From a virus, in the UHGV virus genome UHGV-0122335: a stretch of 20,321 nt of DNA. One strand, 5' to 3'. Positions 2,662 through 19,983 of the stretch are shown here, piece after piece. The number at the start of each line of letters is the position of its first letter. Within the stretch, counting starts at the first letter, position 1. A model generated the notes under the pieces. It did not search any database. It was given only the letters and a program-made list of their open reading frames with translations, and was not told the origin of the DNA. A program made the position numbers and the translations under genes.

Positions 2662-2679
2662 AAGGGGCCGAAGCCCCTT
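2662..2679 (-). other. Intergenic stem-loop (AAGGGGC-cgaa-GCCCCTT) between two virion genes
   Basis: Perfect 7-bp inverted repeat with 4-nt loop in the 56-bp gap between 2639 and 2696. No strong U-tract follows on the minus strand, so it is more likely an mRNA stability or attenuation hairpin than a full terminator. Confidence 0.3.
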
Positions 2680-2695
2680 GTCTGATTCGCGAGGC

Positions 2696-3031
2696 TTACA
2701 CGCCCAGTTCTTTACGCTTATCTGCGATCTTCTCGCGGAGCGTTTCGGCTTTGGCGTTATGGTGTGGCTTCTCGTTAAAGAGCAATTCGTACTCTTCACG
2801 GAGCTTATCCAGTTCACCATCATCTGACACATCGTTGATGATTTTGGTGCTGGTTGCTGCCATTGACACCTTTCCTGCAACTTTTGCTTTTGCCTGTCTG
2901 GCTGCATCGTTAACAGGTTCCAGTGCGCTACCAGGCTCACCTTCGTATTCGATTTCTGCCCCCTCCGGCCACAGAGTGTTATGGATATGAGAGAGGCGCA
3001 GAACGCGGTATCTTGGTTTCTCACCTGACAT
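2696..3031 (-). CDS. Hypothetical virion-module protein (111 aa from ATG 3031; track gives a GTG start at 3040)
   Basis: ORF track 2696..3040; internal ATG at 3031 is preceded by AAGGTGA; lies between capsid-region genes. Confidence 0.5.
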   Translation of the reverse strand: MSGEKPRYRVLRLSHIHNTLWPEGAEIEYEGEPGSALEPVNDAARQAKAKVAGKVSMAATSTKIINDVSDDGELDKLREEYELLFNEKPHHNAKAETLREKIADKRKELGV

Positions 3032-3041
3032 CAATATCACC

Positions 3042-3479
3042 TTAACCAGTTACTTTTGAGCGGATCGGATACGGCGTATTGGCATCAACATCAAGATTGA
3101 TACCCGCAGTGAATTTGCCAGCCGTTAGTGGGCCAGTTGCGACGGAGTAGTTAACACGCAGATATCGCTGAACACCGGCAGGCACCTTTGCAGAAACAAC
3201 TCGCTTACCTGCTGTCAGGGGGGCCTTTGCCAGTGCGCCACTATCATAAATAGTGGACCATGAGCTGTTATTCTCACTCGTCTGCAACTGGATGTTTACA
3301 GTTGCCTCACCACTTGCCGTGGCGGCTTCGTTAACCAGCACCCAAAACTCAAGCGGGTAACCCACACCGATATCGCGACGGTTTCCGTCAATTGGACCGA
3401 GATCGATTACGTCAGTAGAAGCCGCGGTATCAGTTACCGCCTGTGCTTCGGAGAACATCAACAGTTTGTCGGTGATCAT
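3042..3479 (-). CDS. Hypothetical virion protein (145 aa), possible head decoration or accessory protein
   Basis: ORF track; ATG at 3479 with GGAGA upstream; immediately downstream of the major capsid gene. Product inferred from position. Confidence 0.55.
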   Translation of the reverse strand: MITDKLLMFSEAQAVTDTAASTDVIDLGPIDGNRRDIGVGYPLEFWVLVNEAATASGEATVNIQLQTSENNSSWSTIYDSGALAKAPLTAGKRVVSAKVPAGVQRYLRVNYSVATGPLTAGKFTAGINLDVDANTPYPIRSKVTG

Positions 3480-3494
3480 CTTCTTTCTCCATTA

Positions 3495-3514
3495 GTGGGC
3501 CTGTTGCGGCCCAC
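3495..3514 (-). other. Stem-loop immediately after the major capsid gene (GTGGGCC-tgttgc-GGCCCAC)
   Basis: 7-bp perfect inverted repeat 17 nt downstream of the capsid stop codon; no U-run, so probably a stability hairpin or partial terminator. Confidence 0.3.
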
Positions 3515-3530
3515 AGGTTAATAACAGGCG

Positions 3531-4517
3531 TTACACCACGCGGGCTTCTGTTTCCAGAAGTGCGTCAGTTTCACGAATCGGCACACCACGAAGTGCTGTC
3601 CACCATTCGCCTTCTGTCTCTTTCACGCTGATCGCCAGAGAACTCTTCTCCAGAGATTGCAGGTCAAGCACTTCGTTAATGGTTCTGTTCATGTAGAAAA
3701 CAGGACGTCCCATCCCACGATTTGGGATTCGATGAAGGGCACGAATCATCAGTTTTGCGATATTCGCGGCAGTAGAAGGAGCGTCAAGATTACTGACATC
3801 AATGTTTGCGATACGAACTACATAGCGCCAGTCACGTAATGTCAGCCCGTTGTCCCACTTATAATGGGTACGATAACCTTCGTACTTGCCGCCTTTAGCA
3901 TCTTCCAGTGTCACCTGGCCTTTATCTTCCATCTGAATGCCAGCCTTCTGTCCTTTCGGGAAGATGCCATGCACGGTGTTTTCGCCCCACACCACTAACC
4001 AGATTGAAGTGTTATCTGTACCCGTGCCACCAGCATCAATGATGTTCTGAGCATTACCCGCAGACAGGCTGGAATAGCGGGAGGACAGTCCCATAAACTG
4101 CTGAGGGTTAACGCTGGAATCACCGTAAAACAGTGTCTGCGCCATCGCCTGATTCATCGCTTCAATAAATGCTCGGTCTTCAGACAGACGGAATTCGGCA
4201 GTATTACCGTTCAGATCAGCCAGAGACTTATCGACTTCAGCATAGGTTTCCAGCATGCCAATGGAATCGGTGACCTGCACTGTGGTTGATTTGCTTGGCT
4301 GTACGCCATAGTTCAGCAAACGCCAGGTAGCAGAAGGTAAACCAGAACGAATGGTGGTTCGGTGTCCGGTAGGAAGGTTTCCTTCAACAAAAGGCATATC
4401 CTGAAGAATTGGGTTAGTTTGATTGAGAAGCTCGATAATCTTATCGACTTTCCCATTTGGATCGACGCGCTTACCCCAGTCAGCCAGCGTTAGCGCAGTT
4501 AAGCCTTTAACAGACAT
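3531..4517 (-). CDS. Major capsid protein (328 aa)
   Basis: ORF track; ATG at 4517 with strong GGAGGAGA-type RBS; size and position (after portal and an acidic scaffold-like protein) are typical of a major capsid protein. No sequence match was confirmed. Confidence 0.7.
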   Translation of the reverse strand: MSVKGLTALTLADWGKRVDPNGKVDKIIELLNQTNPILQDMPFVEGNLPTGHRTTIRSGLPSATWRLLNYGVQPSKSTTVQVTDSIGMLETYAEVDKSLADLNGNTAEFRLSEDRAFIEAMNQAMAQTLFYGDSSVNPQQFMGLSSRYSSLSAGNAQNIIDAGGTGTDNTSIWLVVWGENTVHGIFPKGQKAGIQMEDKGQVTLEDAKGGKYEGYRTHYKWDNGLTLRDWRYVVRIANIDVSNLDAPSTAANIAKLMIRALHRIPNRGMGRPVFYMNRTINEVLDLQSLEKSSLAISVKETEGEWWTALRGVPIRETDALLETEARVV

Positions 4518-4531
4518 TGTTATCTCCTCTC

Positions 4532-5227
4532 TTATTTGCCATAGAGCACTTCGGCCGCACTACGCTGGCCTTCATTACCACCGGTGACCATGCCATCTTC
4601 AGACATAGCCTTTCCGATTTTCACGAACGTTTTGACCAGATCAGGGTGATTACCCAGCCCGGTGGTGTTCAGATATTCTTTGAGTTCAGGTGTCCCGAAC
4701 TGGTCAAGCGCACGCTGTGCGGCGCTAAGGTTAGAAATCAACTTGTCGCCACCGATTTCTTTGTCAGCTTTTACATCCGCAGCCCACTGCTCGGTTGTTT
4801 TCTGCCAGGCTTCTGCCTGGCGCTGCTGAACACCTGCCAGAATTTTCGGATAAGCATCAACCAGCTTTTGCGCTTGCTCGTTGGTCAGGTTAAGTTCTCG
4901 CGCCACCGGCTCGAACTCCTTCAACGCTTCTGTATCCAGCTCTACGCCTTCGGCAGCCTGAAACTCGTACTTCTCAGGCGCACCCTCTGGTTTATCGCCG
5001 TCCTTTTTTTCATCCTGCTTATCGTTTTCAGGCTTTTTGTCATCAGCAGGTTTATCGCCATCAGCAACAGGTTGTGGCTTATCACCTTCCTGTTGTGATG
5101 GATCACCAACTGGAGCAGGGTTATCACCTGCAGGCGCTGACGGTTCTGACGCAGCCGGAGCTGCTCCACCATCGACTGGTTGCTCATTGCAAAGACGGCG
5201 ATACAGCAAACGCTCAAATAAATTCAT
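4532..5227 (-). CDS. Scaffolding (capsid assembly) protein, acidic and helical (about 231 aa)
   Basis: ORF track 4532..5233; ATG at 5227 with AGGAG 5 nt upstream; highly acidic D/E/K/P-rich N-terminal half; located between portal and capsid genes. Confidence 0.55.
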   Translation of the reverse strand: MNLFERLLYRRLCNEQPVDGGAAPAASEPSAPAGDNPAPVGDPSQQEGDKPQPVADGDKPADDKKPENDKQDEKKDGDKPEGAPEKYEFQAAEGVELDTEALKEFEPVARELNLTNEQAQKLVDAYPKILAGVQQRQAEAWQKTTEQWAADVKADKEIGGDKLISNLSAAQRALDQFGTPELKEYLNTTGLGNHPDLVKTFVKIGKAMSEDGMVTGGNEGQRSAAEVLYGK

Positions 5228-5229
5228 GA

Positions 5230-5526
5230 TCACTCCTGTTCACTGGCCTCTTTGGCCATCTTCAAATACTGTTCAGGGCAATGCGCCATAACGCGCTGAA
5301 ACAGTTCCAGCGCCAGATTGCGTTGCCCCTCATTAAATGCCATTGCCATAGCGTCCATCGGTGAGATAGCGGAAAACACCCGGCCTTTCTCCAGCACAGA
5401 CCAGACAACGCGACGCCCCTGTTCACTGCTCATGACAAAGCGAATGTCATCAATTTCACGCTGTGCCATGTCACGTTGCTTACGGGCGTTTTCTTCTTTC
5501 AGTTGATCGTCTTCGTAATCTGTCAT
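5230..5526 (-). CDS. Hypothetical protein (98 aa) between portal and scaffold
   Basis: ORF track; its ATG overlaps the portal stop (ATGA), suggesting translational coupling. Confidence 0.55.
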   Translation of the reverse strand: MTDYEDDQLKEENARKQRDMAQREIDDIRFVMSSEQGRRVVWSVLEKGRVFSAISPMDAMAMAFNEGQRNLALELFQRVMAHCPEQYLKMAKEASEQE

Positions 5527-7202
5527 TGTGATTGCCCACCCTGACCACTAACTGCATTCGCCATAGCTGACAAAACACTCGGATCCGAAGTTTTAGCTTC
5601 GCTTAGCGTCTTGGCACCCTGTGCCGCCGCCATCCCCATCGCCATCATTTGTTGCTGCTGTTGTTGCTGTGCCCGTTGCTGGCGAGCCTGCTCAACCTGT
5701 TCCTGCGGAACAATGACGGTTGGAGACACTCCGGACATATCAGCGAATGCATCGATCGCCTGATCAACGTTGAGTTTGTCGAAAGCTTCTGGTTTCGCTT
5801 GCGCAAGTTGACCAATGAAGTTAACCGTGGACGCCAGACTGGACAGGCCGATAGACTTCTGCGCCTGAGCCATGACAGAAATGTATTCGACCTTCAGGGG
5901 CATACCTTCCATCGCGTCAGGCGGTGGCGGCAGCATGTTTTTACGCACCATCATCGAGAAAGCGCGGTCAATGAGAGGATTAAGACATTCGTCGTTCAGA
6001 CGCTCCAGAACCGGCCCCAACATCAGAAGCTTTTCTTCTTTCATTTCGATCACCGCTTCAACAGGCATTGAGCGGGTATTGATGTTCTGCAACATCATGA
6101 ACAGATCGACGAAGTAGGCGCTGTTAATGATTTGACGAGTGTCCTGAATGTCTGCCACCAAATCTGCTGTACTGGGGTTAACCAGATAAGCAGGCCTGAA
6201 GCCATCCTGACCAGTAATCTGATCGATATACGTGATGTCGCCAGGAAGAAGGGAGGCGCGCTGATTCTTGAGGGAAGTCGGAGCAACCATCGGCGGATTG
6301 GTGGCTTTATCAATCAACTGCGACTTGCGCTTCTGGAGAAGCTGCAATGCCTTAACAGGTCCAAGCGCCAGCATACCCGGGCATGATGATCCATAAACAT
6401 CTTCGCCGTTAACTTCCCAGCGCGGAGCCATAATTGGAAACTCATCGAATCCGGACTCGCGCAACAACTTGTCGTTATCGCCACCAACCTCGTAATAAAC
6501 CGATTTGAATGGCTTGTTCTTGCTATCCAGCTTCGATGCATCGCGGTCAATGTTCGGGTAAACCGAATGCATCACTTCAATCCACTTCTCGTAGGTGCCG
6601 CTTTCCCACATGCTTTTTACGGATTCGCTGACGTTATTTAGCCCGAACTCCTGAACAAGCTGACGAACAGTCATAGAGAACTTGCGAAAACAGGTGTCCA
6701 CACTGCCACGAGGTGAGTTAGCCAGGTAGTAACTGCCTATCGGGAATGGCATTGTGCGAATGATGTCCTCGTCATCCTCCAGCACTGCCATTGCACCAGT
6801 GCTGTATGTGCCGAGGCTTCCGTATAACTGCGGCAGAGACTGATAGAGATTCGACTTATTGAACATATCGTTCATGCGGTTCTGCACCGCCTCAAGCCAC
6901 AACTTAACAGGGCCATAATCCATCATTTCAGGATCTGGCGTAGCCAGGCGAAACCACGGACGCGCGGGGCTTGTGATGCCTGACATCATGCCGCTGGCGA
7001 GAGTGCGCGCCGCCATAGTCCCGGTCGAATCAATAATACGTGTATTGCGTCGATCGTTACGGTTGACCTCAGAAGTCAGAAAGCGGGAACCACGCGGGTT
7101 GATGTAATCACTCAACTCGCGCCAGTGCGGCTCGAACGATTGACGCTCGCTTTCAAGTTGTGCGAACTGTTTGTTCAATCGCTCTTTAGTTGTTTCCGCC
7201 AT
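5523..7202 (-). CDS. Portal (head-tail connector) protein, 559 aa, with Q/A-rich C-terminal tail
   Basis: ORF track; ATG at 7202 with GGAG RBS; size and position after terL; C-terminal poly-Q/Ala-rich tail resembles T7-type head-tail connector proteins (recollection, not a search). Confidence 0.7.
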   Translation of the reverse strand: MAETTKERLNKQFAQLESERQSFEPHWRELSDYINPRGSRFLTSEVNRNDRRNTRIIDSTGTMAARTLASGMMSGITSPARPWFRLATPDPEMMDYGPVKLWLEAVQNRMNDMFNKSNLYQSLPQLYGSLGTYSTGAMAVLEDDEDIIRTMPFPIGSYYLANSPRGSVDTCFRKFSMTVRQLVQEFGLNNVSESVKSMWESGTYEKWIEVMHSVYPNIDRDASKLDSKNKPFKSVYYEVGGDNDKLLRESGFDEFPIMAPRWEVNGEDVYGSSCPGMLALGPVKALQLLQKRKSQLIDKATNPPMVAPTSLKNQRASLLPGDITYIDQITGQDGFRPAYLVNPSTADLVADIQDTRQIINSAYFVDLFMMLQNINTRSMPVEAVIEMKEEKLLMLGPVLERLNDECLNPLIDRAFSMMVRKNMLPPPPDAMEGMPLKVEYISVMAQAQKSIGLSSLASTVNFIGQLAQAKPEAFDKLNVDQAIDAFADMSGVSPTVIVPQEQVEQARQQRAQQQQQQQMMAMGMAAAQGAKTLSEAKTSDPSVLSAMANAVSGQGGQSQ

Positions 7203-7216
7203 TTCAATGACTCCGG

Positions 7217-7423
7217 TTACTGACCAAGCAGCGTTTTACCGCTGGTATTAGCGGTTGATGTGTCGCCCTGAGAACCGGTAAGCAGCGTAGAACTACGACC
7301 AGCAGCAGCGCGACGGCGACGAGTTTCTTCGTCGCGGGCATCAACAACGGCGGCATCCTGCTCCTGTGGTGCTGCCTGAACTTCTGGTGTTGCAGGCACT
7401 GATGGTGAGCTACCCATGCACAT
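7217..7423 (-). CDS. Small acidic S/T/A-rich hypothetical protein (68 aa) upstream of portal
   Basis: ORF track; ATG at 7423 preceded by GGAGTCATTGAT; stop lies 15 nt before the portal ATG. Confidence 0.45.
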   Translation of the reverse strand: MCMGSSPSVPATPEVQAAPQEQDAAVVDARDEETRRRRAAAGRSSTLLTGSQGDTSTANTSGKTLLGQ

Positions 7424-7491
7424 ATCAATGACTCCGTACGCAATTAAATTATTACCAATTTAACCACATATGATTTATTTATCGTAGACAG

Positions 7492-7520
7492 TTGACATTT
7501 AATGCACGAATTATTACCTT
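7492..7520 (+). promoter_or_regulatory. Candidate sigma70 promoter (TTGACA at 7492-7497 with a weak -10) upstream of the tRNA island
   Basis: Consensus -35 hexamer TTGACA; the downstream -10 is poor (TATTAC/TACCTT region); overlaps the palindrome at 7514..7528. Confidence 0.3.
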
Positions 7521-7528
7521 TAAGGTAA
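7514..7528. repeat. 15-bp near-palindrome TTACCTTTAAGGTAA (copy 1 of 2)
   Basis: Seen directly; a second copy TTACCTTGAAGGTAA lies at 8138..8152; a further palindrome GGTTACTAACC lies at 7545..7555. Confidence 0.5.
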
Positions 7529-7857
7529 CCAAAGAGTTCATTCCGGTTACTAACCTGACTGGCTTGTCGTTAAATTGAACAGGTGGAGTGAGCTTTTATT
7601 TTGAGCAGTACGGCGTATGGCACATGCGACGATAGCGGTCTGGATACGTTTAAGGGGCACCCTCCCTTGCTCGGGCAAACGAACCAGGTAGCCGGAATGT
7701 GCAAGTCGAGCGGTTTTATTCCGCGCACGGGGATTCACCATCCCGGCGATTCGGTGTGACGCCTCGGAAGAGACGAGGGTACAACGATGAGAGCATTGGA
7801 TATTAGCGGGCTGTTCCACCCTACCTGATATCGAGCCAAACCAGTGCTCTCAGCGTT

Positions 7858-7934
7858 GTGGCATTAGCTCAGTTGGACAGAGCAACCGCCTTCTAAGCGG
7901 TTGGTCGCAGGTTCGAATCCTGCATGCCACGCCA
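7858..7934 (+). tRNA. tRNA-Arg (anticodon UCU, reads AGA), CCA encoded
   Basis: Hand-folded cloverleaf: acceptor GTGGCAT/ATGCCAC, D-stem GCTC/GAGC, anticodon stem ACCGC/GCGGT with loop CTTCTAA, T-arm GCAGG-TTCGAAT-CCTGC, discriminator G plus CCA. Phage-borne tRNA-Arg(UCU) is common in lambdoid and Stx-type phages. Confidence 0.9.
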
Positions 7935-7977
7935 GAATCACGCCTAAGGACCGTGATGCCAGAAGTTCCAGGGGATT

Positions 7978-8019
7978 GGCGGTGACTGTTTCCCTTGAAG
8001 GACTATCACCGCCCTTTTT
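7978..8019 (+). terminator. Putative intrinsic terminator downstream of the tRNA
   Basis: GGCGGTGA...TCACCGCC 8-bp stem (long structured loop) followed by CTTTTTTA. Confidence 0.45.
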
Positions 8020-8097
8020 ACAGCAGGACGCCATTGCGATGACTTCATGCTGTAAACCAGTACAGCCACGGAAGGCATAACTCATTGCTTCCAGTTC

Positions 8098-8121
8098 GCC
8101 CGGTTCGCCGGGCATTTTTTT
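8098..8121 (+). terminator. Intrinsic (rho-independent) terminator
   Basis: GCCCGG-ttcg-CCGGGC hairpin followed by ATTTTTTT. Confidence 0.65.
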
Positions 8122-8137
8122 GCCTGGTGACTGAACG

Positions 8138-8152
8138 TTACCTTGAAGGTAA
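8138..8152. repeat. 15-bp near-palindrome TTACCTTGAAGGTAA (copy 2), 33 nt upstream of the moron ATG
   Basis: Seen directly; overlaps a candidate promoter (GTGACT -35 at about 8127, TAAGAT -10 at 8150-8155). Confidence 0.5.
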
Positions 8153-8184
8153 GATAACAAAAACATTTAACATCTGGTTTAGAC

Positions 8185-8790
8185 ATGTTCGAGCAATTTA
8201 AAGAGATCGCATCATCGGCTATTAGCACAGCGTCAGAGAGAGTCCGCAACCCAGCACTTGGGGCATTTGTGTTTTCGTGGTGTTCTTTTAACTGGAATCC
8301 ACTATTATTTTTATTCTTCAGTAAGTCAGGAATTGAAGAAAAAATAAATTATATATCTTCCCATAGTGATGCGTACCACTCACTCTTATATCCAGCTTTA
8401 TGTGCATTCGCGCTGTGTGTAATAGTTCCATGGTTTAACAATATAGTGGTGATGTTTCAAAAAATTCCACTACAGAACATCGATAACTTCAAACACAACA
8501 AAAGCCTCAGGGATGTTAAAAACGCCATAGAATTGCGTAAGCTTGAGGCACAAAGGGACATTACATACGACAGAGTTAAGGTTGAGTTTGAGTCTGAGAT
8601 TCAATTCTATAAAAATGATTTAATCAAGCACCAAGAGTCTTTGAATTCTTTTTTGCAGGAAAGAGATTCCCTTATTGAAAAAATAATGGCGCTTGAAAAA
8701 GAACTTGCAGAAGAAAAAATAAAATCCAATACCAGAATTGCAAATAAGTTTAACTCAAGGAACAATCGCAACACAGACAATGCTGCTTAA
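8185..8790 (+). CDS. AT-rich moron: predicted membrane protein with two hydrophobic segments and a C-terminal coiled-coil (201 aa); function unknown
   Basis: ORF track; strongly AT-rich relative to flanks; opposite strand to the structural operon; hydrophobic stretches LGAFVFSWCSFNWNPLLFLFF and LLYPALCAFALCVIVPWFNNIVVMF followed by a K/E-rich heptad-like region; no obvious SD sequence. Confidence 0.6.
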   Translation: MFEQFKEIASSAISTASERVRNPALGAFVFSWCSFNWNPLLFLFFSKSGIEEKINYISSHSDAYHSLLYPALCAFALCVIVPWFNNIVVMFQKIPLQNIDNFKHNKSLRDVKNAIELRKLEAQRDITYDRVKVEFESEIQFYKNDLIKHQESLNSFLQERDSLIEKIMALEKELAEEKIKSNTRIANKFNSRNNRNTDNAA

Positions 8791-8794
8791 AACT

Positions 8795-10264
8795 TTATGA
8801 AAACGGATCGTACTCAGTAATAGCTTTCCCCTGCTGCTGCCGTGGGTCATTAGTTTTCTTGGCTACCGGGAAGGCGAACGTTAGCAGCAGCGCATCACCT
8901 TTACCCGGCGAACGCCCAAGTCGCTCTTTGATATCTTCCTTCGGTTCGATAACGATTTTACCGTCCACGCGAACTTTGTACTCTGCCGTCGACAGGTCGT
9001 CTGCTGTTTCCTGGTCATCCAGCATCCCGCCCAGCCTCAGCCATGTCTTGCATGAGTTGAACATCTCCCCACGCTTGTTGAGCATCTGCGGGTCAGTAGA
9101 CGCGCCACCGAACGGAACAAGTTGCCATGTACGACCCCAGCCGTCACCGATTGACTTCAGACCAGTTCCGTAACCGAAGTCGATGAACACTGCGTCAGCC
9201 TGGTACTGGTCTTCAAAGTCAGCGATACGCTTCGCCATTATCAGATCGTCAGTGGTCTTGTTGCCAGTCCACAGCACCTTACTGTGCAGCCCCTGCCGCA
9301 GGTATATCACAGCGTCATCAACTCCGGAGTATGCCGGGTCAACGCCGATTATCACCGGAGCATGTGCAACCTGCGCAGCGGTTACCACCCGTTTCATTGC
9401 CTCATCAGTAAGACCGGTAGGGATAAACTGCAATTCAGATGCATCAGGGAATATGCCGCGCACACGGATTTTAACGAAGTCGCTGTCTTCCCCGTAGTCA
9501 TCAACCCATTTCTGCAACTGCTGTTTGTTAGTACCTTCCACCGTCCGGCTGTCAATCTGCGCAGTTTTCCAGCGGTGTTTGTATTTGCGGAAACATTCGC
9601 GAAAACGCCCGGTATTACGTGTAGGGTTTCCGAACGCCACCCAGATAATCTCAGTGTCTTCGTCCGTAAGCGCACCCTCAGCAACTTCCCACACCAGATC
9701 CGCAATGTTCGACGCTTCATCGAATACCACGATGATGCGTTTGCGCTCGTTGTGTAGTCCGGCGAATGCCTCAGTGTTGTGCTCAGACCAGGGGATTGCG
9801 TCAGCTCGCCACCGCTTGTCGTGCCCAGGATCATTGCTGTACATCGCAGTAGCGGTACAGGTAAACCAGTCTTTCGTGATAGCAAGGTTCGACCACTTGA
9901 TAATTTCCGGCCAGGTCTTCGTTCGTAGCTGGTTGTCGGTGTTGGCGGTCACCACGACCTTACAATCCTCGCAAGTGGACATGCCCCAGTTGATCAGCAT
10001 TGAGATGAATGCGGATTTACCAATACCGTGACCAGAAGCGCGTGCCAGCATAAGCGGCTGATAGCGCGTCTCTGGATTCTGCAGGTGATCACGTATCTCT
10101 CGGAACGCATCAGCCTGCCACTGACGTGGGCCGGTAGCATGTGCCAGTTCAGTCCCCTCTTCCCCCCACGGGAACGCATAGAGGGCATAGCCAAGCGGAT
10201 CGTGAGTGAACCCTGCAATATCCTCGATCAACTGCTCTTCAGGAGATAACGCTGTATCTGTCAC
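8795..10264 (-). CDS. Terminase large subunit (489 aa)
   Basis: ORF track; GTG start at 10264 overlapping the terS stop (GTGA) with AGGATGG upstream; size and position immediately downstream of the small subunit and upstream of portal. Confidence 0.8.
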   Translation of the reverse strand: MTDTALSPEEQLIEDIAGFTHDPLGYALYAFPWGEEGTELAHATGPRQWQADAFREIRDHLQNPETRYQPLMLARASGHGIGKSAFISMLINWGMSTCEDCKVVVTANTDNQLRTKTWPEIIKWSNLAITKDWFTCTATAMYSNDPGHDKRWRADAIPWSEHNTEAFAGLHNERKRIIVVFDEASNIADLVWEVAEGALTDEDTEIIWVAFGNPTRNTGRFRECFRKYKHRWKTAQIDSRTVEGTNKQQLQKWVDDYGEDSDFVKIRVRGIFPDASELQFIPTGLTDEAMKRVVTAAQVAHAPVIIGVDPAYSGVDDAVIYLRQGLHSKVLWTGNKTTDDLIMAKRIADFEDQYQADAVFIDFGYGTGLKSIGDGWGRTWQLVPFGGASTDPQMLNKRGEMFNSCKTWLRLGGMLDDQETADDLSTAEYKVRVDGKIVIEPKEDIKERLGRSPGKGDALLLTFAFPVAKKTNDPRQQQGKAITEYDPFS

Positions 10265-10857
10265 TGATTACCATCCTGACGTTCTTTGAGTCGCTTCCTG
10301 GCTGCCGCTATGCGATCAGCAATTGTCACATTCACATTAACATCCAGGCGTTCTTTGAATGCATTGACGTCGACGTGCTTACCAATCAGTTCGAGGTTCT
10401 TCACCTTGTCAGGCCATTTAATTTTTTTGAGAATTGTCTCTATCGAATCCTCGTTCATGTTCATGATGGTCGATGACAGATCAAAGCCACTAAGCGTAGT
10501 GCGCCAGATTTTCGGCCACTCGCGGATTGGCTTAAGGCTCCCATCGTCATTGAGGATATCAATCACGTCCATCTGGTCGATCTCCACCAGGCGCATGAGA
10601 ACGTAATCGGCACTGACGCGCATTCGTTTGTTGCGCTCCTCCATCAACTCGGCAATCCGTTTTTGAATGCGTTCATCGCGCATCATGACACTGGCTTTAA
10701 CTGCCGCTGTATTTGGGGAGAATCCTGCGTTAATCGCTGCCTGAGTCTGGTTTTCAGGCGTTTTGATGTATGACTGGCAATAAGCCTCCTGCATTGCGGT
10801 TAGTGGCTTAAATTGCGTTGATTTGCGTTTATAGGTTTTAGGTTCAGCAGGCATCAT
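10261..10857 (-). CDS. Terminase small subunit (start uncertain: 10857, 10854 or upstream to 10935)
   Basis: ORF track 10261..10935; ATG-ATG at 10857/10854 preceded by GGTGG; basic helical protein directly upstream of and coupled to terL. Confidence 0.6.
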   Translation of the reverse strand: MMPAEPKTYKRKSTQFKPLTAMQEAYCQSYIKTPENQTQAAINAGFSPNTAAVKASVMMRDERIQKRIAELMEERNKRMRVSADYVLMRLVEIDQMDVIDILNDDGSLKPIREWPKIWRTTLSGFDLSSTIMNMNEDSIETILKKIKWPDKVKNLELIGKHVDVNAFKERLDVNVNVTIADRIAAARKRLKERQDGNQ

Positions 10858-10900
10858 AACCACCATGGTAATTGTTACCGTTGTGGTAATAGTACCATGC

Positions 10901-10926
10901 AAAATAAAGCCGCCATAGTTGGCGGC
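10901..10926 (-). terminator. Intrinsic terminator on the minus strand just upstream of terS
   Basis: GCCGCCA-acta-TGGCGGC hairpin followed by UUUAUUUU in the minus-strand transcript. Confidence 0.5.
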
Positions 10927-11010
10927 AGTATTCAAAACCCATCAAATTCATCATGCATAATCTACTCGTGACATGTCACACTATTAATTTCGTTTCATGC
11001 CAGCCTTTAG

Positions 11011-11322
11011 TCACCCAGCATTGCGAGTCACCATTACACGGGCATGAATTAACGGGAACTCTCTCGCCGCACTTACCGCAAAGTTTCTGCTGATCGATTT
11101 TATACGCCCGCGCACACGTGCATCATCCTGGCGGATCAGCAGCGCGATGTACTCGGCCATTTCATAGGGATCGCGACCAGGGCGCCGGGCGGCGCAGTTC
11201 CGCGCCAGCATTTCCTGCTCCTGCTTATCCAGCACCAGTTCAATTTTGCGCTCACCGGCGGCGGACTGCCGAGCGCGCTGCGCGGCTTTGCGTTCTGCGG
11301 GGGATTTAGCCACGAATCGCAC
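11011..11322 (-). CDS. Hypothetical Arg-rich protein (103 aa by track, GTG start with poor RBS)
   Basis: ORF track only; no convincing RBS; lies in the junction region between the early-left genes and terS. Confidence 0.3.
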   Translation of the reverse strand: MRFVAKSPAERKAAQRARQSAAGERKIELVLDKQEQEMLARNCAARRPGRDPYEMAEYIALLIRQDDARVRGRIKSISRNFAVSAAREFPLIHARVMVTRNAG

Positions 11323-11428
11323 TCCACGCCAGATTGATTAATGACTCCCAGGTAATATAAACCCGGATACCAGCAACCAGGCCGAAACCAATCACCATGG
11401 CATAAAGCAGAGCGTTGCACTTGTTCAT
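11306..11428 (-). CDS. Small hydrophobic protein (40 aa), likely membrane peptide
   Basis: Hand-translated (MNKCNALLYAMVIGFGLVAGIRVYITWESLINLAWSAIRG); GGAGG RBS; its ATG overlaps the stop of the upstream DUF551-like gene (TGATG). Below the ORF-track length cutoff. Confidence 0.4.
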   Translation of the reverse strand: MNKCNALLYAMVIGFGLVAGIRVYITWESLINLAWSAIRG

Positions 11429-12195
11429 CACTTCACCTCCTGCGGCGGTTCTGGTAGCGGCATCCAGTGGGTTACTTTCGATGCCGGTTCTTCCCCATCG
11501 TCAGTAACTGCCCACCATTTGTTTCTCGACCAATCGTAATACCCTTCGAAGGTATCGCACTCAGTCCAGCCGTAAGACTTACCCCAACACCAAACATACT
11601 GTTTATCGTTCGGCATTCGCTCACTACAGCTTATCCAACCATCCGGAGTTGCCGGAGTTGGTCCATCGAATTCGGGCATGTCAGGACCTTTTCTGATAGC
11701 TTTAGCCAGCTCCAGCGGGTCATCGTAAAGCCAGTCGCCAGTTTGTGGGTGATTTGCTTCTGCAAGCTGCGCAGCCCATTCAAGACCATCTTTTTGACCT
11801 TGGAGATAATCAAGCGGCAACTCTTCATGATTACTTGCAGGTTCGGCACTATGAAGCATGGCAGCGCGGCAGGCGTTCCAGCCTCTTACCCCTGCAATAG
11901 CGGCAACCGCATCAACCGCGTACATGCTAAGAGGATTAGGAATTGGTTTTTCTTCCGGTACTACTGGCGCTGGAGGGGTGGCGTAGAGTGGAACTCCTCC
12001 CCCTCCACCAGAAAATTCATTGCGAGCGTTATACTCACGACCATCTGCGTCATCACGCATCCACGCCACCGGCTCTGCTTCCAGCGATGCCAGAGCAATT
12101 TCATAAGCACGGCGCTCAATATTGTCTCGCACGTCCAGGCTGCCGATTCGCTCTTTGATTTCTTTAATCAGTTCTTTGTCGGTAAAAGTGGTCAT
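11428..12195 (-). CDS. DUF551-like prophage protein (255 aa; Trp-rich C-terminal domain)
   Basis: ORF track; ATG at 12195 with AAGGAGAG RBS; C-terminal W-rich region (GWISCSERMPNDKQYVWCWGKSYGW...THWMPLPEPP) resembles the DUF551 domain common in lambdoid prophages (recollection). Confidence 0.6.
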   Translation of the reverse strand: MTTFTDKELIKEIKERIGSLDVRDNIERRAYEIALASLEAEPVAWMRDDADGREYNARNEFSGGGGGVPLYATPPAPVVPEEKPIPNPLSMYAVDAVAAIAGVRGWNACRAAMLHSAEPASNHEELPLDYLQGQKDGLEWAAQLAEANHPQTGDWLYDDPLELAKAIRKGPDMPEFDGPTPATPDGWISCSERMPNDKQYVWCWGKSYGWTECDTFEGYYDWSRNKWWAVTDDGEEPASKVTHWMPLPEPPQEVK

Positions 12196-12196
12196 G

Positions 12197-13015
12197 TCAC
12201 TCTCCTTTGATGCGAATGCCAGCGTCAGACATCATATGCAGATACTCAACTGCATCCTGAACCCATTGACCGCCAATCCCGTAATAGCGATGCGTAATGA
12301 TGTCGATAGTTACTAACGGGTCTTGTTCGATTAACTTCCGCAGAAACTCTTCCAGGTCACCAGTGCAGTGCTTGATGACAGGAGTTTTCCCAGGATGGCG
12401 AACAACAAGAAACTGATTTCCGACTTCACGGACTTCGTTGCTTTTCAGTTCTGCAATGCGCTTCTCTGAGGCTTCCAGCTTCTCTCGCATATCGTCAACG
12501 TACTCGACCAGAGAACCGCCAGCAGGAATTTCGCACTCCTCGACCAGTTGGAAGTAGATATCAGCTGCGGCCCGTGTGTTGCTATGCCTAGCGTCGCCCA
12601 TCTCACCTTCACGAAGAGCATCGCGTTCGGCGGTAAGATTGGCTATTTTGCTGTCTTTGCCTTCCAGCTCAACGCGCAGCTTCCCTACCGTTAGCGCAAT
12701 ATCCTCGTTCTCCTGGTCGCGGCGTTTGATGTATTGCTGGTTTCTTTCCCGTTCATCCAGTAATGCCAAGACGGTAGCCGGATTAGCTGCGGCGATGAAT
12801 TCAGCATTGGCCTGCTGTTCCATTTGGAAATCTTCATCGAAACCGCTTTCTGGATGCGCTCCTTCAATTCTGCAAATAGGAATATATCCAGCAACTTCAC
12901 GATGAATTAGCGCATCATCACCATCAAATCGGCTCTCTCCATATTCGAGCGACCATACACCACACGTTGCTTTTTCTGCCTTGGCACGCAGTGCCTGATA
13001 GTCAATCTTGCTCAC
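12197..13015 (-). CDS. Ead/Ea22-like protein (272 aa)
   Basis: ORF track; GTG start at 13015 with AGGAGG 6 nt upstream; central coiled-coil; typical early-left accessory protein of lambdoid phages (family assignment from recollection). Confidence 0.55.
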   Translation of the reverse strand: MSKIDYQALRAKAEKATCGVWSLEYGESRFDGDDALIHREVAGYIPICRIEGAHPESGFDEDFQMEQQANAEFIAAANPATVLALLDERERNQQYIKRRDQENEDIALTVGKLRVELEGKDSKIANLTAERDALREGEMGDARHSNTRAAADIYFQLVEECEIPAGGSLVEYVDDMREKLEASEKRIAELKSNEVREVGNQFLVVRHPGKTPVIKHCTGDLEEFLRKLIEQDPLVTIDIITHRYYGIGGQWVQDAVEYLHMMSDAGIRIKGE

Positions 13016-15485: not shown

Positions 15486-16454
15486 TTAGTAGGTTATTTT
15501 TGTTGCGAATACTTCGCCTTTTACGATGGCTGTTATGATATTTTTAGCAACATCTTCTGATGCGCCAACCTTGATAAGGTCAGCAAGTATTTTGTTATTT
15601 ACTTCTTTCCGGTGATCTTTATCCTTTGCTCTACGCTCTTCTTCGTCCTTGATTCTTTTTTCTTCTGCTATTCTGGCTTGCTCTTTTGCTTCAGCATCGC
15701 GACGGATTTGTTCAGCCTCCTCCTGTGCTTTTCTGCGTTCTGCTTCAATTGCTGCCTGCTTTTCTCTTTCAGCTCGTTCTGCTGCCTCTTTTGCTTCGCG
15801 CTGTGCTCGTTGCTCGGCTTCAATGCGTTCACGCTCTGCACGTTCTGCTGCGGCCTTAGCTTCTGCTTCTCGCCTTGCTGCTGCTTCAATTTCGGCTTTT
15901 GCCTTTGCTTCGGCTTCTGCTCTGGCTTTCTCTTCAGCTTCTCTTTTTAATCGTTCTTCATGCTCTCGCTTTTCCTGCTCCGCTTTGAGTCTTGCCTCTT
16001 CTCTTTGGCGGTCAAATTCGCGATCCATCAAAATCGCTATTTCATGGTCAGACTCAATTTGCTTTGCGAGAGCTTCAGCTGCTGCCTTAGCTTCTTCTTC
16101 GGCTTTAATCCGTGCCTGTTCCTCCTCATAATCAGTAAGAGGCTGGCGTGCCTTGGCTTTCAGCTCATCAAGTCGATCACGCACTGTCTTGCGGTTGGCA
16201 TCAATTAGCTTTGGAATTCCCTTCAGTTCAGCAACAAGGTCTTTGCCAAGACCATCGAGATATGTTTTCGTCTGCGCAACTTTATACGCCAGAGAAGCGA
16301 TCTCCTTTCTGCCCTTTGCCGTTGTGATATCAGGCACAAAGGACATAACTTCACGTTCAACCTTTTGGAGAATTTCTTCAATCTGGTCGGCAGACTGAAA
16401 TACAGTCATTGCATTTGCTTTTTCAATAACAACTAAATCTGTTACTTCACTCAT
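15486..16454 (-). CDS. Highly charged coiled-coil protein with E/A/K/R-rich repeats (322 aa from ATG 16454)
   Basis: ORF track 15486..16550; the in-frame ATG at 16454 carries a strong GGAGGATAT RBS; a roughly 120-residue central stretch of EAxAKA/ERxxRE-type repeats (low-complexity DNA); N- and C-terminal regions appear globular. Confidence 0.65.
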   Translation of the reverse strand: MSEVTDLVVIEKANAMTVFQSADQIEEILQKVEREVMSFVPDITTAKGRKEIASLAYKVAQTKTYLDGLGKDLVAELKGIPKLIDANRKTVRDRLDELKAKARQPLTDYEEEQARIKAEEEAKAAAEALAKQIESDHEIAILMDREFDRQREEARLKAEQEKREHEERLKREAEEKARAEAEAKAKAEIEAAARREAEAKAAAERAERERIEAEQRAQREAKEAAERAEREKQAAIEAERRKAQEEAEQIRRDAEAKEQARIAEEKRIKDEEERRAKDKDHRKEVNNKILADLIKVGASEDVAKNIITAIVKGEVFATKITY

Positions 16455-16466
16455 ATATCCTCCATC

Positions 16467-16496
16467 AAAAAAAATTGCCCTCACACTGGAGGGCAA
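16467..16496 (-). terminator. Intrinsic terminator on the minus strand upstream of the coiled-coil gene
   Basis: TTGCCCTC-cagtgt-GAGGGCAA hairpin followed by U8 in the minus-strand transcript. Confidence 0.6.
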
Positions 16497-16588
16497 AGAA
16501 GATTTCCAATAATCAGAACAAGTCGGCTCCTGTTTAGTTACGAGCGACATTGCTCACATAGCAGACTCGTAAATCTGCTATAGGCGCT

Positions 16589-17314: not shown

Positions 17315-17647
17315 TCAATCGTAATAAGCTGGAATTGATTTTCCGCGTTGCTTCTGGCGGCCTGAGCAGGTCAAACCCATTTCACTACGTGGCTTGCTGT
17401 ACCATGTGCGCTGATTCTTGCGCTCAATACGTTGCAGGTTGCTTTCAATCTGTTCGTGGTATTCAGCCAGCACTGTAAGGTCTATCGGATTCAGTGCGCT
17501 TTCTACTCGTGATTTCGGTTTGCGATTCAGCGAGAGAATAGGGCGGTTAACTGGTTTTGCGCTTACCCCAACCAACAGGGGATTTGCTGCTTTCCATTGA
17601 GCCTGTTTCTCTGCGCGACGTTCGCGGCGGCGTGTTTGTGCATCCAT
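17315..17647 (-). CDS. N: Antitermination protein N (lambda-type)
   Basis: N-terminus MDAQTRRRERRAEKQAQWKAANPLLVGVS is the lambda N arginine-rich boxB-binding motif and the protein is near-identical to lambda N over most of its length; AGGAG RBS. Confidence 0.9.
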   Translation of the reverse strand: MDAQTRRRERRAEKQAQWKAANPLLVGVSAKPVNRPILSLNRKPKSRVESALNPIDLTVLAEYHEQIESNLQRIERKNQRTWYSKPRSEMGLTCSGRQKQRGKSIPAYYD

Positions 17648-17845
17648 CTGGATTCTCCTGTCAGTTAGCTTTGGTGATTGGATGGCCGGCGCTGAACCCC
17701 GGCTTACTGGTTAGAGCGCCCGCACTACCAGTGACGCTGTCTTGAGGCGCAGATTGGTTACTGCTTGCCATGAGCGCTGTTTATACATTGGTCGAGCATC
17801 AGCCTGCTCATTCATCCAATCCCAAAGCCTTCTGCTTTGAATGCT

Positions 17846-17875
17846 GCCCTTCTTCAGGGCTTAATTTTTAAGAGC
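17846..17875 (-). promoter_or_regulatory. nutL (boxA plus boxB)
   Basis: The minus strand reads GCTCTTAAAAATTAAGCCCTGAAGAAGGGC, one base different from lambda nutL boxA-boxB as recalled; about 200 nt upstream of N. Confidence 0.8.
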
Positions 17876-17915
17876 ATCACCTTCATGGTGGTTAGTACGT
17901 CCTGCTGATGGCTAA

Positions 17916-17944
17916 ATAGTACGATTTGTACTTTATCGAGTCAA
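17916..17944 (-). promoter_or_regulatory. pL promoter (TTGACT, 17-nt spacer, TACTAT) with overlapping operator
   Basis: Minus-strand -35 at 17944..17939 and -10 at 17921..17916 with 17-nt spacing; correct position upstream of nutL and N. Confidence 0.5.
17918..17932. promoter_or_regulatory. Candidate oL operator: palindrome AGTAC-N5-GTACT
   Basis: Perfect 5+5 inverted repeat overlapping the pL -10 and spacer; related sites occur in the oR region. Confidence 0.4.
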
Positions 17945-18010
17945 TACAAAATGTTCTAAATATAATTAGTTTTTTATAACGCTTTGTATTTAATGGGTTT
18001 ATATTTTTGA

Positions 18011-18039
18011 AAAAGAAAACCCGACGCTAAGGTCGGGTT
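18011..18039 (-). terminator. Intrinsic terminator downstream of cI
   Basis: AACCCGAC-cttagc-GTCGGGTT hairpin followed by UUUUCUUUU on the minus strand, 31 nt after the cI stop. Confidence 0.55.
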
Positions 18040-18069
18040 ATTGTTGTGTGTTTTAGAGTGGTGAGGCTG

Positions 18070-18729
18070 TTAACTAAATGTCTCTTCAGGCCACTGGCTG
18101 GCGATAACTTTCCCTACTACGGAACAGCTATCATTGCATGGAATCATTGGATATTGCGGGTTTAGTGGCTGTAGGAACACCTGACCGCTATCCCTGATCA
18201 GTTTCTTGAAGGTAAACTCGTCACCACCAAGTCTGGCTATGCAGAAATCACCTGGCTCAACAGCCTGCTCAGGGTCAACGAGAATTAACATCCCGTCAGG
18301 AAAGCTTGGCTTGGATCCTGTTGGTGCGGTCATTGAGTTACCTTCAACCTCAAGCCAGAATGCAGAGTCACTGGCTTTTTTGGTTGTGCTGACCCATCTC
18401 TCCGCATCACCTTTGGTAAAGGTTCTAAGCTCAGGCGAGAACATCCCGGCCTGAACATGAGAAAAAACAGGGTACTCATATTGTTTTTTAACGGGGGAAG
18501 ATGAGTATTCGCCAACAGGTGAAAATGTACCGTCGTGGTTGAATGAGACGTTATCAATACCAAGGTATTTAAACACCACACCAATCTCGTCAAGAGATGG
18601 ATGACGAGATCCGCGCAACCAGTGACCAATTCCACCCTGCGTCATACCAAGCTCTTCAGCCAACTTCTCTTGAGTTATGCCGAGCTCTTTCATTCTGGAT
18701 CTAGCCAGTTCATACCATTTCATTTTCAT
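18070..18729 (-). CDS. cI: CI repressor: lambda-like C-terminal dimerisation/autocleavage domain fused to a non-lambda HTH DNA-binding domain
   Basis: C-terminal about 130 aa ([22 protein letters not shown]...[14 protein letters not shown]) are essentially lambda cI; N-terminal about 85 aa differ from lambda. Start taken at MKMKW (18729); the track's upstream extension is probably not translated. Confidence 0.85.
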
Positions 18730-18785
18730 GTCCTTATTATTACGCTCTGTACTAAAACCATCCATGCACAAGATGTATTTTTTGT

Positions 18786-18814
18786 TTGCATTCCAAAAGT
18801 ACATATCGTATTAT
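18786..18814 (+). promoter_or_regulatory. pR promoter (TTGCAT, 17-nt spacer, TATTAT)
   Basis: Near-consensus hexamers with 17-nt spacer about 27 nt upstream of the cro ATG. Confidence 0.55.
18798..18812. promoter_or_regulatory. Candidate oR operator AGTAC-N5-GTATT
   Basis: 9/10 match to the oL palindrome; lies in the pR spacer and -10; a weaker third site ATTAC-N5-GTACT lies at 18739..18753. Confidence 0.4.
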
Positions 18815-18840
18815 TGCCTCATGGTTACTATGGAGGGCAT

Positions 18841-19056
18841 ATGAGCAACCTACGTAAATATCGAGAGTCACTGAATATCTCTCAAACAACACTTGCTAAG
18901 GCGGTTGGATGCACACAGGGAGCTATCGGACATTGGGAATCTGGTCGTCGCTTCCCAGACCTTAAAACATGCCGTGCTCTTGTTGAGTGCCTAAACAAGT
19001 TAGGCGCAAAAGTCAGTCTTGATGACGTGTTCCCGCCGGAACACAAAGCCGCTTAA
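18841..19056 (+). CDS. cro: Cro-like HTH repressor (71 aa), non-lambda
   Basis: ATG at 18841 with GGAGGG RBS; HTH motif (ISQTTLAKAVGCTQGAIGHWESG); divergent from cI across the operator region. The longer track ORF 18601..19056 is rejected. Confidence 0.7.
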   Translation: MSNLRKYRESLNISQTTLAKAVGCTQGAIGHWESGRRFPDLKTCRALVECLNKLGAKVSLDDVFPPEHKAA

Positions 19057-19064
19057 GACATTCC

Positions 19065-19096
19065 AGCTCTTACACATCCCAGCCCTGAAAAAGGGC
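19065..19096 (+). promoter_or_regulatory. nutR (boxA AGCTCTTACACAT plus boxB GCCCTGAAAAAGGGC)
   Basis: boxB matches lambda nutR boxB exactly as recalled; boxA is near-identical; lies between cro and cII. Confidence 0.8.
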
Positions 19097-19185
19097 ATCA
19101 AATTAAACCACACCTATGGTGTATGCATTTATTTGCATGCATTCAATCAATTGTTATCTAAGGAAATACTTACATATGGTTCGTG

Positions 19186-19469
19186 CAAACAAACGCAACG
19201 AGGCTCTAAGAATCGAGAGTGCGTTGCTTAACAAAATCGCAATGCTTGGAACTGAGAAGACAGCGGAAGCTGTGGGAGTTGATAAGTCGCAGATCAGCAG
19301 GTGGAAGAGGGACTGGATTCCAAAGTTCTCAATGCTGCTTGCTGTTCTTGAATGGGGCGTCGTTGACGACGACATGGCTCGATTGGCACGACAAGTTGCT
19401 TCGATTCTCACCAATAAAAAACGCCCGGCGGATATTTTCGCTGAGAATCAGTTAACCATGAATTTTTAA
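19186..19469 (+). CDS. cII: Transcriptional activator cII (94 aa), lambda-like with divergent C-terminus
   Basis: MVRANKRNEALRIESALLNKIAMLGTEKTAEAVGVDKSQISRWKRDWIPKFSMLLAVLEWGVVDDDMARLARQV is essentially lambda cII; the last 13 or so residues differ. Confidence 0.85.
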
Positions 19470-19479
19470 GGATGGTCTT

Positions 19480-19908
19480 ATGACTCCGTGTTTGGAATTT
19501 GGCGGTTTAAAGGACAGCAAGGGTTATGGAAGGGTTTGGATTAATGGGAAAAAAGTATTTGCTCATAGATTTGCTTATTGTGTGGCAAAAGGGATCCAGC
19601 TTGAAGATATAGATGGCTTAGTAATTCGTCACGCATGTGACAATCCTTCTTGTATTTTACCTTCTCATTTATGTGCTGGGACAAGTCAGCAAAACGCAAA
19701 TGACATGGTGGAGAGAAAAAGGCAGGCATTTGGAAGCAGGAATGGTAGGGCAAAATTAACTGAAGATGATGTAAGAAACATCATTAGTGAATATATACCA
19801 AGACACCCCTTATTCAACACAAGGGCATTATCAAAAAAATATGGAGTAACGCCAAATTATATAGCTGCCATTTGCAGAGGTGAAAAATGGAAGCACATAA
19901 AAAAATAA
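19480..19908 (+). CDS. HNH homing endonuclease (142 aa), free-standing
   Basis: Cys/His motif region typical of phage HNH endonucleases (HRFAYCVAKG...HACDNPSCILPSHLCAGTSQQNANDM); AAGGA RBS; AT-rich; inserted between cII and the O-like gene. Confidence 0.7.
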   Translation: MTPCLEFGGLKDSKGYGRVWINGKKVFAHRFAYCVAKGIQLEDIDGLVIRHACDNPSCILPSHLCAGTSQQNANDMVERKRQAFGSRNGRAKLTEDDVRNIISEYIPRHPLFNTRALSKKYGVTPNYIAAICRGEKWKHIKK

Positions 19909-19983
19909 AACGCCCGGTGTGCAAGACCGAGCGTTCTGATCAAATACAAATGGAATTTTAACAACATCCAACGAGGTAATTAT

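Follow-up and report, generated by a model that had tools for sequence, protein, structure and literature searches.

The region around the cI repressor gene of the virus genome UHGV-0122335 poses a question: what immunity specificity does a switch confer when its flanks resemble those of lambda and its DNA-recognition parts do not? We analysed this genome as one stretch of 20,321 nucleotides, hereafter the window. A preliminary description of positions 17650-18840 had called the interval a hybrid immunity region of distinct specificity. We are confident that the interval is the immunity region (the lysis/lysogeny switch) of a temperate lambdoid coliphage, that its specificity determinants are of the type found in VT2-Sakai (Sp5) and Stx1 phages, and that its flanks are of lambda type. 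The determinants, assigned as part of the same reading, would comprise the N-terminal helix-turn-helix (HTH) domain of cI, cro, and three OL and three OR sites. The lambda-type flanks are N, nutL, a Timm-like terminator, the cI C-terminal domain, nutR, and cII with pRE. This immunity type is already known and very common, as is the mosaic arrangement in which it occurs here.

Repressor, Cro and putative operators

The sequence identities, domain content, site positions and half-site conservation reported here were read directly from the DNA. The interval has the layout of a lambdoid CI/Cro switch: cI (minus strand) and cro (plus strand) diverge around three dyads, and a second cluster of three dyads lies at pL (Table 1). 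The cI DNA-binding domain, Cro, the recognition helices and the operator half-sites at OL1-3 and OR1-3 all match the VT2-Sakai/Stx1-phage type. The lambda operators (TATCACCGCCAGTGGTA-like 17-mers), the lambda cI N-terminal domain and lambda Cro are all lacking in the window.

Pfam divides cI into an N-terminal HTH_3 domain and a C-terminal Peptidase_S24 domain, the latter a LexA-like autopeptidase and oligomerisation domain. Residues 1-83 constitute the VT2-Sakai-type HTH_3 domain. Over its whole length the protein shares 96% of its residues with VT2-Sakai CI. The HTH is the same in both; the three substitutions among the 83 N-terminal residues (D60S, E61D and V75I relative to VT2-Sakai) all lie outside that motif. 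In phage 683R2 the N-terminal domain is identical. The same domain is only ~30% identical to that of lambda cI and is 14 residues shorter at the N-terminus, such that the arm is missing. The HTH keeps Q33, E34 and Q44 of lambda. S45, A49 and N55 have been replaced, and Glu stands opposite both positive-control residues of lambda, E34 and D38. The C-terminal domain, by contrast, is 99% identical to lambda at the protein level, and the best match of cI in the Protein Data Bank is lambda repressor itself (3bdn, E=5e-97). Ala94-Gly95, Ser132 and Lys175 are retained, aligning with lambda A111-G112, S149 and K192. The codon differences from lambda in this domain are 23 synonymous and 2 non-synonymous, a sign of strong purifying selection.

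Cro is 99% identical to VT2-Sakai Cro (1 substitution in 71 residues), and tblastn found no homologue of lambda Cro in the window (E>1). Its recognition helix, TQGAIGHW, nearly equals that of the phage's own cI, TQGGIGHW. The protein is an HTH_3 paralogue of the cI N-terminal domain, at 35% identity. The near-equality of the two helices is consistent with both proteins binding the same sites, as predicted. The preliminary description was thus right that the cI C-terminal domain is lambda-like (94.1% at the DNA level) and that the N-terminal domain and cro are not. It had proposed a comparison with known immunity types. That comparison places the N-terminal domain (96%) and Cro (99%) with VT2-Sakai, a type that does not bring different operators, because the putative operators annotated for it are the same AGTAC-N5-GTACT-like sites.

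The core of these sites, AGTACNNNNNGTACT, is perfect at 17918-17932 and has one mismatch at 18739-18753 and at 18798-18812. Six sites in the window coincide with putative 17-bp operators of AP000422 and AP005153, the records of VT2-Sakai and the Stx1 phage, which annotate one set of three at pL and another in the cI-cro interval. OL1-3 and OR1-3 have likewise been predicted for the Sakai Stx2a phage (Yin et al., PMC4587872), whose CI was placed in Clade I, closest to lambda CI, with operators treated as predicted (Fagerlund et al., PMC8951638). Thus, the AGTAC-N5-GTACT motif had been recognized correctly in the preliminary description, but only three of the six sites had been spotted; OL2, OL3 and OR2 were overlooked. 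Of the two copies that it placed over pR, the one at 18739-18753 is OR3, over the -10 element of pRM.

To score the sites, we scanned the window with a position weight matrix (PWM). The matrix was built from the VT2-Sakai sites, which are homologous to those of the window, and hence the scan tests specificity within the window and not binding. Five of the six best matches in the 20 kb were these operator sites; the maximum in shuffled sequence was 12.0 +/- 1.5 bits. The window-wide count of cores at two or fewer mismatches was not significant (7 vs. 4.25 expected). Their placement was: four of the seven fall in the two control regions, ~200 bp in all, for which the expectation was 0.042 (Poisson P ~1e-7).

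Comparison of the window with the VT2-Sakai lineages gave a second line of evidence. Half-site positions were conserved at 58 of 60, other control-region positions at 110 of 152 (Fisher p=1.6e-5), and one of the two half-site differences is an alignment artefact. Half-sites are therefore kept between lineages, while operator centres and spacers vary. A search with the lambda operator consensus returned no match in the window at three or fewer mismatches, and lambda's own control regions hold none of these dyads. Lambda immunity was rejected on the former result, and the earlier statement that the operators are not those of lambda stands. The "distinct specificity" claimed there survives in part: by sequence, the N-terminal domain, cro and operators are indeed non-lambda, but the specificity is not new, being of VT2-Sakai type.

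The predicted promoters fit these sites. The predicted pL overlaps OL1 and OL2, pR overlaps OR1, and the candidate pRM adjoins OR2 and OR3; the position of the last is that of the "putative maintenance promoter" in the VT2-Sakai and Stx1 phage records. Since the cI ATG comes 6 nt after the end of this pRM, the cI mRNA made in maintenance probably has no leader or almost none, like that of lambda. The centre of OR2 lies 43 bp upstream of the cI ATG (42 bp in lambda). Spacing between operators is wider than in lambda, with centre distances of 33 bp for OR1-OR2 (24 in lambda) and 33 bp for OL2-OL3 (20 in lambda); OR2 and OR3 are 26 bp apart. The extra 9 bp between OR1 and OR2 lie between OR2 and the -35 element of pR. 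Spacing of this kind appears to be a family trait, since phage L shares it (34 bp).

Table 1. Features of the immunity region and its surroundings, with positions in the window
Feature	Position	Strand	Identity to lambda	Details
OL1	17917-17933	.		TAGTACGATTTGTACTT; perfect dyad; overlaps pL -10; PWM 20.2 bits
OL2	17942-17958	.		CAATACAAAATGTTCTA; overlaps pL -35; PWM 16.9 bits
OL3	17975-17991	.		TATAACGCTTTGTATTT; PWM 14.5 bits
OR3	18738-18754	.		TATTACGCTCTGTACTA; overlaps pRM -10; PWM 14.5 bits
OR2	18764-18780	.		ATGCACAAGATGTATTT; weakest match; abuts pRM -35; PWM 11.4 bits
OR1	18797-18813	.		AAGTACATATCGTATTA; overlaps pR spacer and -10; PWM 18.7 bits
cI repressor	18070..18729	-		219 aa; alternative start 18723 gives 217 aa; Pfam, alignment
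cro	18841..19056	+		71 aa; Pfam HTH_3 1.4e-12; all-helical, non-lambda Cro fold family
pL (predicted)	17916..17944	-		TTGACT-17-TACTAT; promoter scan; same position as annotated pL of VT2-Sakai
pR (predicted)	18786..18814	+		TTGCAT-17-TATTAT; promoter scan gave TTTGCA-18-TATTAT
pRM (inferred)	18736..18764	-		TGGATG-17-AATAAT; read from sequence
Intrinsic terminator for cI transcripts	18005..18039	-	88.9%	hairpin and T-tract; terminator scan; homologous to lambda Timm
N antiterminator	17315..17647	-		110 aa; Pfam N36 E=1.6e-26; open reading frame list
N-leader non-lambda segment	17677..17820	-		144 bp; interior and both arms of long hairpin equivalent to lambda N-leader stem
nutL	17846..17876	-		boxA TGCTCTTA (17869-17876), boxB GCCCTGAAGAAGGGC (17846-17860); alignment with lambda
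nutR	19065..19096	+		boxA AGCTCTTA (19065-19072), boxB GCCCTGAAAAAGGGC; alignment with lambda
cII	19176..19469	+		97 aa; Pfam Phage_CII 2.7e-45; lambda allele except last 11 residues
pRE CII site	19185-19198	-		TTGCGTTTGTTTGC; TTGC-N6-TTGC; within cII
Lambda-like block	17391-17676		99.3%	N
Lambda-like block	17821-17910		96.7%	nutL to pL transcript start
Lambda-like block	18012-18047		88.9%	lambda 35799-35834, terminator just 3' of rexB
Lambda-like block	18076-18480		94.1% DNA (99% protein)	cI C-terminal domain
Lambda-like block	19063-19431		97.8%	nutR through cII

Mosaic joints, the rex slot and the lambda-type flanks

Where does lambda homology begin and end? A blastn comparison with NC_001416 resolved the lambda-like blocks listed in Table 1. 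Three stretches showed no homology: part of the N leader (17677-17820), OL (17911-18011), and the cI N-terminal domain with OR and cro (18481-19062). The region is thus a mosaic relative to lambda, as had been proposed, with only its DNA-recognition parts exchanged: OL, the cI N-terminal domain, OR and cro. The left joint lies at ~17910, just downstream of the pL -10 and OL1, and the right joint at ~19062, directly after the cro stop codon. There are two internal joints, one where the Timm-like terminator lies (18012) and the other within the cI linker (18480; lambda homology starts at codon 84). From the positions of these four joints, the specificity determinants appear to be inherited as two separate segments around the lambda-like cI C-terminal domain, one holding OL and the other the cI N-terminal domain, OR and cro.

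The mosaic boundary inside cI noted in the preliminary description is therefore real, a single junction in the linker. We considered a recent recombination with lambda at this point and rejected it, because the C-terminal domains of the window, VT2-Sakai and lambda are equidistant (mutual DNA identity 92.7-93.4%), with no closer pair. The junction is instead an old feature common to the whole VT2-Sakai type.

Downstream of the cI stop codon (18070-18072), 30 bp separate the gene from the stem of the terminator (18039-18005), with the operator cluster and pL coming next. The annotation of mEp332 has Timm in the corresponding position. Searches of the window by tblastn with lambda RexA and RexB found neither (E>1), which argues that rex is absent and has not been relocated within the window. 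Both the missing rexAB and the direct succession of cI, terminator and pL had been read correctly before. The segment between cI and Timm is a known variable cargo slot, and its empty state here is one of several fillings on record: the slot holds rexAB in lambda, a hypothetical protein of 345 aa in mEp332 and prophage CFS3246, and two open reading frames (ORFs) in VT2-Sakai.

The components of N antitermination and of the cII/pRE pathway are all present, namely the N motif, boxA and boxB at both nut sites, cII and the CII site. N has the lambda-type N-terminal arginine-rich motif. Both boxB elements are those of lambda, and each boxA differs from lambda CGCTCTTA at the first base only. The earlier claim that N, nutL, nutR and cII are near-identical to lambda holds for the high-identity blastn blocks and, apart from that base in each boxA, fails in three places: the 144 bp of the N leader, the last ~25 codons of N, which form a non-lambda allele, and the last 11 codons of cII, where a cassette encoding an HNH endonuclease replaces them.

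The N-leader segment matches neither lambda nor 683R2; IME10, Gally and Stx2c phages share it at 98% identity. Its hairpin (17650-17830, minus strand) folds with z=-4.5 and keeps the lambda basal stem though both arms are changed. The arms have changed together, reading GGGAUUGGAUG/CAUCCAAUC here vs. GGGGUGUGUG/CACACACC in lambda. The hairpin appears to have been exchanged as a unit, with pairing preserved.

The HNH homing-endonuclease cassette (19432-19958; ORF 19480-19908, Pfam HNH_3) has been inserted into cII at its 3' end, and both boundaries of the cassette share AATAAAA(AA)CGCCCGG. After ..KKRPA, the tail of cII is DIFAENQLTMNF here and ATERSEQIQMEF in lambda, and the length of the protein stays at 97 aa; the displaced lambda-like tail (KRPVCKTERSDQIQMEF, then a stop) persists as a remnant at 19908-19958. 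The cassette also occurs in E. coli EC11, CH10508, MS14385 and 20AR1039. The C-terminal tail of CII is a signal for degradation by FtsH. Because this tail has been replaced, the stability of CII might differ here.

Proposed switch and competing explanations

The region most likely works as a lambda-like CI/Cro switch, with repressor binding, promoter activities and cooperativity predicted from the sequence. CI dimers would bind the 17-bp dyads through half-sites of the form A(G/T/A)TAC...GTA(C/T)T. At OL1 and OL2 they would occlude pL and at OR1 they would occlude pR; at OR2, CI would activate a weak pRM, and OR3, lying over the -10 of that promoter, would provide negative autoregulation. The lambda-like C-terminal domain would supply dimerisation, cooperativity and RecA-stimulated self-cleavage at Ala94-Gly95, with Ser132 and Lys175 as the residues involved. 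Cro, the HTH_3 paralogue with almost the same recognition helix, would bind the same sites and shut off pRM. N would act at the lambda-type nut sites, and cII would activate pRE for establishment. Presumably, a phage with this switch would be homoimmune with VT2-Sakai-type phages and heteroimmune to lambda.

Several points weigh against this account. OR2 on its own (11.4 bits) does not exceed the shuffle maximum; its support comes from its position, the VT2-Sakai annotation and a phage L site in the corresponding place. The consensus promoter scan gave no match for pRM, although this is expected of a weak, activator-dependent promoter. The 33-bp spacing of OR1 and OR2 accompanies a lambda cooperativity domain, and pairwise cooperativity may be wired differently here. 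Our literature search found no binding experiment on these sites with the cognate repressor, the operators are "putative" in every record, and bioRxiv 2024.03.06.583675 holds no operator data. Finally, a passage of PMC10742460, on this point a secondary source citing Fattah et al., states that VT2-Sa and lambda are cross-immune, and the same article reports that lambda CI binds VT2-Sa operators with an apparent Kd of 3.7-6.4 uM in electrophoretic mobility shift assays (EMSA). Given these two reports, heteroimmunity to lambda may not be absolute.

Could the switch, then, be partly cross-immune with lambda, through overlapping HTH recognition or through mixed CI dimers or oligomers? The reports just cited, the 99% identity of the C-terminal domains and the retention of lambda Q33, E34 and Q44 all speak for it. 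Yet the micromolar Kd values are weaker than all those that the same assay gave for lambda operators (0.2-3.1 uM) and fall in a concentration range that makes non-specific binding likely; the N-terminal domain is distant from that of lambda and armless, with S45, A49 and N55 changed; and neither phage carries the other's sites, the window having no lambda-type operator and the lambda control regions none of these dyads. We therefore regard partial cross-immunity as improbable. It is still less probable, to the point of being a minor concern, that the real operators lie elsewhere and that the dyads are AT-rich promoter DNA conserved for other reasons. In its favour, OR2 and OL3 are weak (three mismatches to the core), and overlapping promoter elements would also conserve several of the sites. 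Against it, the same dyad occurs six times with the same 5-bp centre length, the half-sites are conserved while centres and spacers vary, phage L and epsilon34 have such sites in both OR and OL, amid DNA that cannot be aligned, and their arrangement mirrors the promoter/operator geometry of lambda.

A new specificity shared with no described phage would accord with the ~6% DNA difference between the window and VT2-Sakai cassettes, the D60S, E61D and V75I substitutions and the differences in several operator centres. The HTH is nonetheless identical to that of VT2-Sakai, with all three substitutions outside it; 58 of the 60 half-site bases are conserved, the N-terminal domain recurs unchanged in 683R2, and the segment is 98-99.8% identical in other phages and prophages. 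We consider such novelty barely credible. The same low standing applies to the notion that the prophage is cryptic, the region a remnant in decay and its switch no longer functional. The missing rexAB and the interruption of the cII 3' end by the HNH cassette could be taken as signs of decay, but all of the genes are intact, cII being full length with a substitute tail; the codon differences in the C-terminal domain point to purifying selection; and the same arrangement exists in the deposited phage genomes Louie, Dewey, 683R2, 720R6 and phi458.

A more speculative suggestion, which we think unlikely, is that heteroimmune repressors (those of lambda, the VT2-Sakai type and the window) form mixed dimers or oligomers in polylysogens, which would couple prophage stability and induction, and that there is cross-reactivity with imm-L across genera. 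The former arises because the C-terminal domain is 99% identical to that of lambda and under purifying selection across heteroimmune repressors, the latter because the recognition helix and half-sites are near-identical in Salmonella phage L. If true, mixed CI oligomers might explain the reported cross-immunity of lambda and VT2-Sa. A VT2-Sakai-type CI/Cro switch in lambda-type surroundings remains the reading that we prefer.

Genome context, distribution and comparison with known switches

Outside the early region, the left two thirds of the window (positions 1-13014) is a podovirus module of the epsilon15/phiV10 kind. Identity over these positions is 99.9% to phage EC.W1-9, and 96-97% to two epsilon15-like podoviruses, phiV10 and TL-2011b. 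The module encodes a small terminase (10261-10935) and a phage tRNA-Arg(tct) at 7858-7934, shares its strand with the pL operon and is joined to the lambdoid early region, making the genome a cross-family mosaic. An Rfam scan of the whole window matched this tRNA (7858-7931) and nothing else, the immunity region included. We rejected the idea that the tRNA marks a prophage end and host DNA, given the 99.9% identity of the module to EC.W1-9 and the annotation of tRNA-Arg inside phiV10-like phage genomes. Between cIII/kil and N, an ORF of 354 aa (15486-16550, minus strand) encodes long, highly charged repeats rich in Glu, Lys, Arg and Ala and has no Pfam match; its equivalents are annotated as "TolA protein" (683R2) and "coiled-coil domain-containing protein" (EC11).

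The segment comprising the cI N-terminal domain, OR and cro occurs in 68 phage records at 93-98% identity. It is 98% identical in Louie, Dewey, vB_EcoP-683R2, vB_EcoP-720R6 and phi458, and the full arrangement in these five phages is 98-99% identical to that of the window. At 93% DNA identity, cI, OR and cro are shared with VT2-Sakai, the Stx1 converting phage, Stx2 II, 1717, Nil2, YYZ-2008, 2851 and the PA series. Among complete E. coli genomes, ~70 cover 80% or more of the 2.2-kb region with 98-99% identity, and the HNH gene is part of the match in several. The specificity cassette alone is present in 773 of 5426 complete E. coli genomes (~14%, about one in seven).

As a discovery, this region matters little: it represents textbook lambdoid mosaicism, and predictions of its operators date back to the deposition of the VT2-Sakai sequence. 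The assignment made here places the phage in one immunity group with Stx phages of clinical importance, which should help to predict superinfection exclusion and co-lysogeny. The region is also a clean case in which only the DNA-recognition parts have been exchanged and the lambda oligomerisation and cleavage domain has been retained. For an immunity type this widespread in E. coli, the lack of published cognate repressor-operator binding data that we could find constitutes a gap.

The closest relatives share nearly everything with the window. Louie, Dewey, 683R2, 720R6, phi458 and the ~70 prophages (e.g. EC11, CH10508, MS14385 and Ecol_881) have the same lambda-type N and nutL, the same cassette, no rexAB, and lambda-type nutR and cII. 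The five phage records differ from the window in the 144-bp N-leader segment, and phi458 and some prophages (e.g. CFS3246) have a ~1-kb gene in the rex slot, which is empty in the window. The gene in CFS3246, a prophage with window-type immunity, also fills the slot of mEp332 (GenBank EF120456), a wild lambdoid phage with lambda immunity, as a hypothetical gene of 1038 nt. Virion modules vary among these relatives, being P22-like in 683R2 and EC11 and epsilon15/phiV10-like in the window.

VT2-Sakai/Stx1-type phages (CI "Clade I", PMC8951638) have the same six dyads in the same places relative to pL, pR and pRM, and the cI C-terminal domain of VT2-Sakai is lambda-like, as in the window. In contrast to the lambda-type N, nutL, nutR and cII of the window, those of VT2-Sakai are of HK97, 933W or HK022 types. 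Its OL region is only 78% identical to that of the window, and ~1.3 kb with the two ORFs separates its cI from the terminator.

Salmonella phage L provides the more distant comparison. Its c2 protein has an N-terminal domain 54% identical to that of the window and almost the same recognition helix (TQGAIGHWLNG). Half-sites of the form ATAC-N5-GTA(C/T) occupy three OR positions (X94331, 546-620), which lie 34 and 26 bp apart where the window has 33 and 26 bp, and occur also at OL, in control DNA that otherwise cannot be aligned with the window. The two phages differ in host, in gene 24 (N) and the nut sites, which in phage L are of P22 type, and in the c2 C-terminal domain, which is not lambda-like. 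The deposited phage L cro translation (X94331, 314-511) matches the window Cro over only the first ~20 residues and then diverges, which looks like a frameshift in an old record and not a real difference. ATAC-N5-GTAT sites are found at cI/cro of epsilon34 and g341c as well, with spacings of 24 and 35 bp in epsilon34.

Lambda itself has the same gene order as the window (N-nutL-pL/OL-(terminator)-cI-OR-cro-nutR-cII) and the same three plus three operators. The placement of its OR1-3 relative to pR and pRM agrees within 1-2 bp with that in the window, and in both the cI start directly follows the pRM -10. Lambda is also set apart by a Cro of another family (HTH_3 in the window), another operator sequence and the presence of rexAB.

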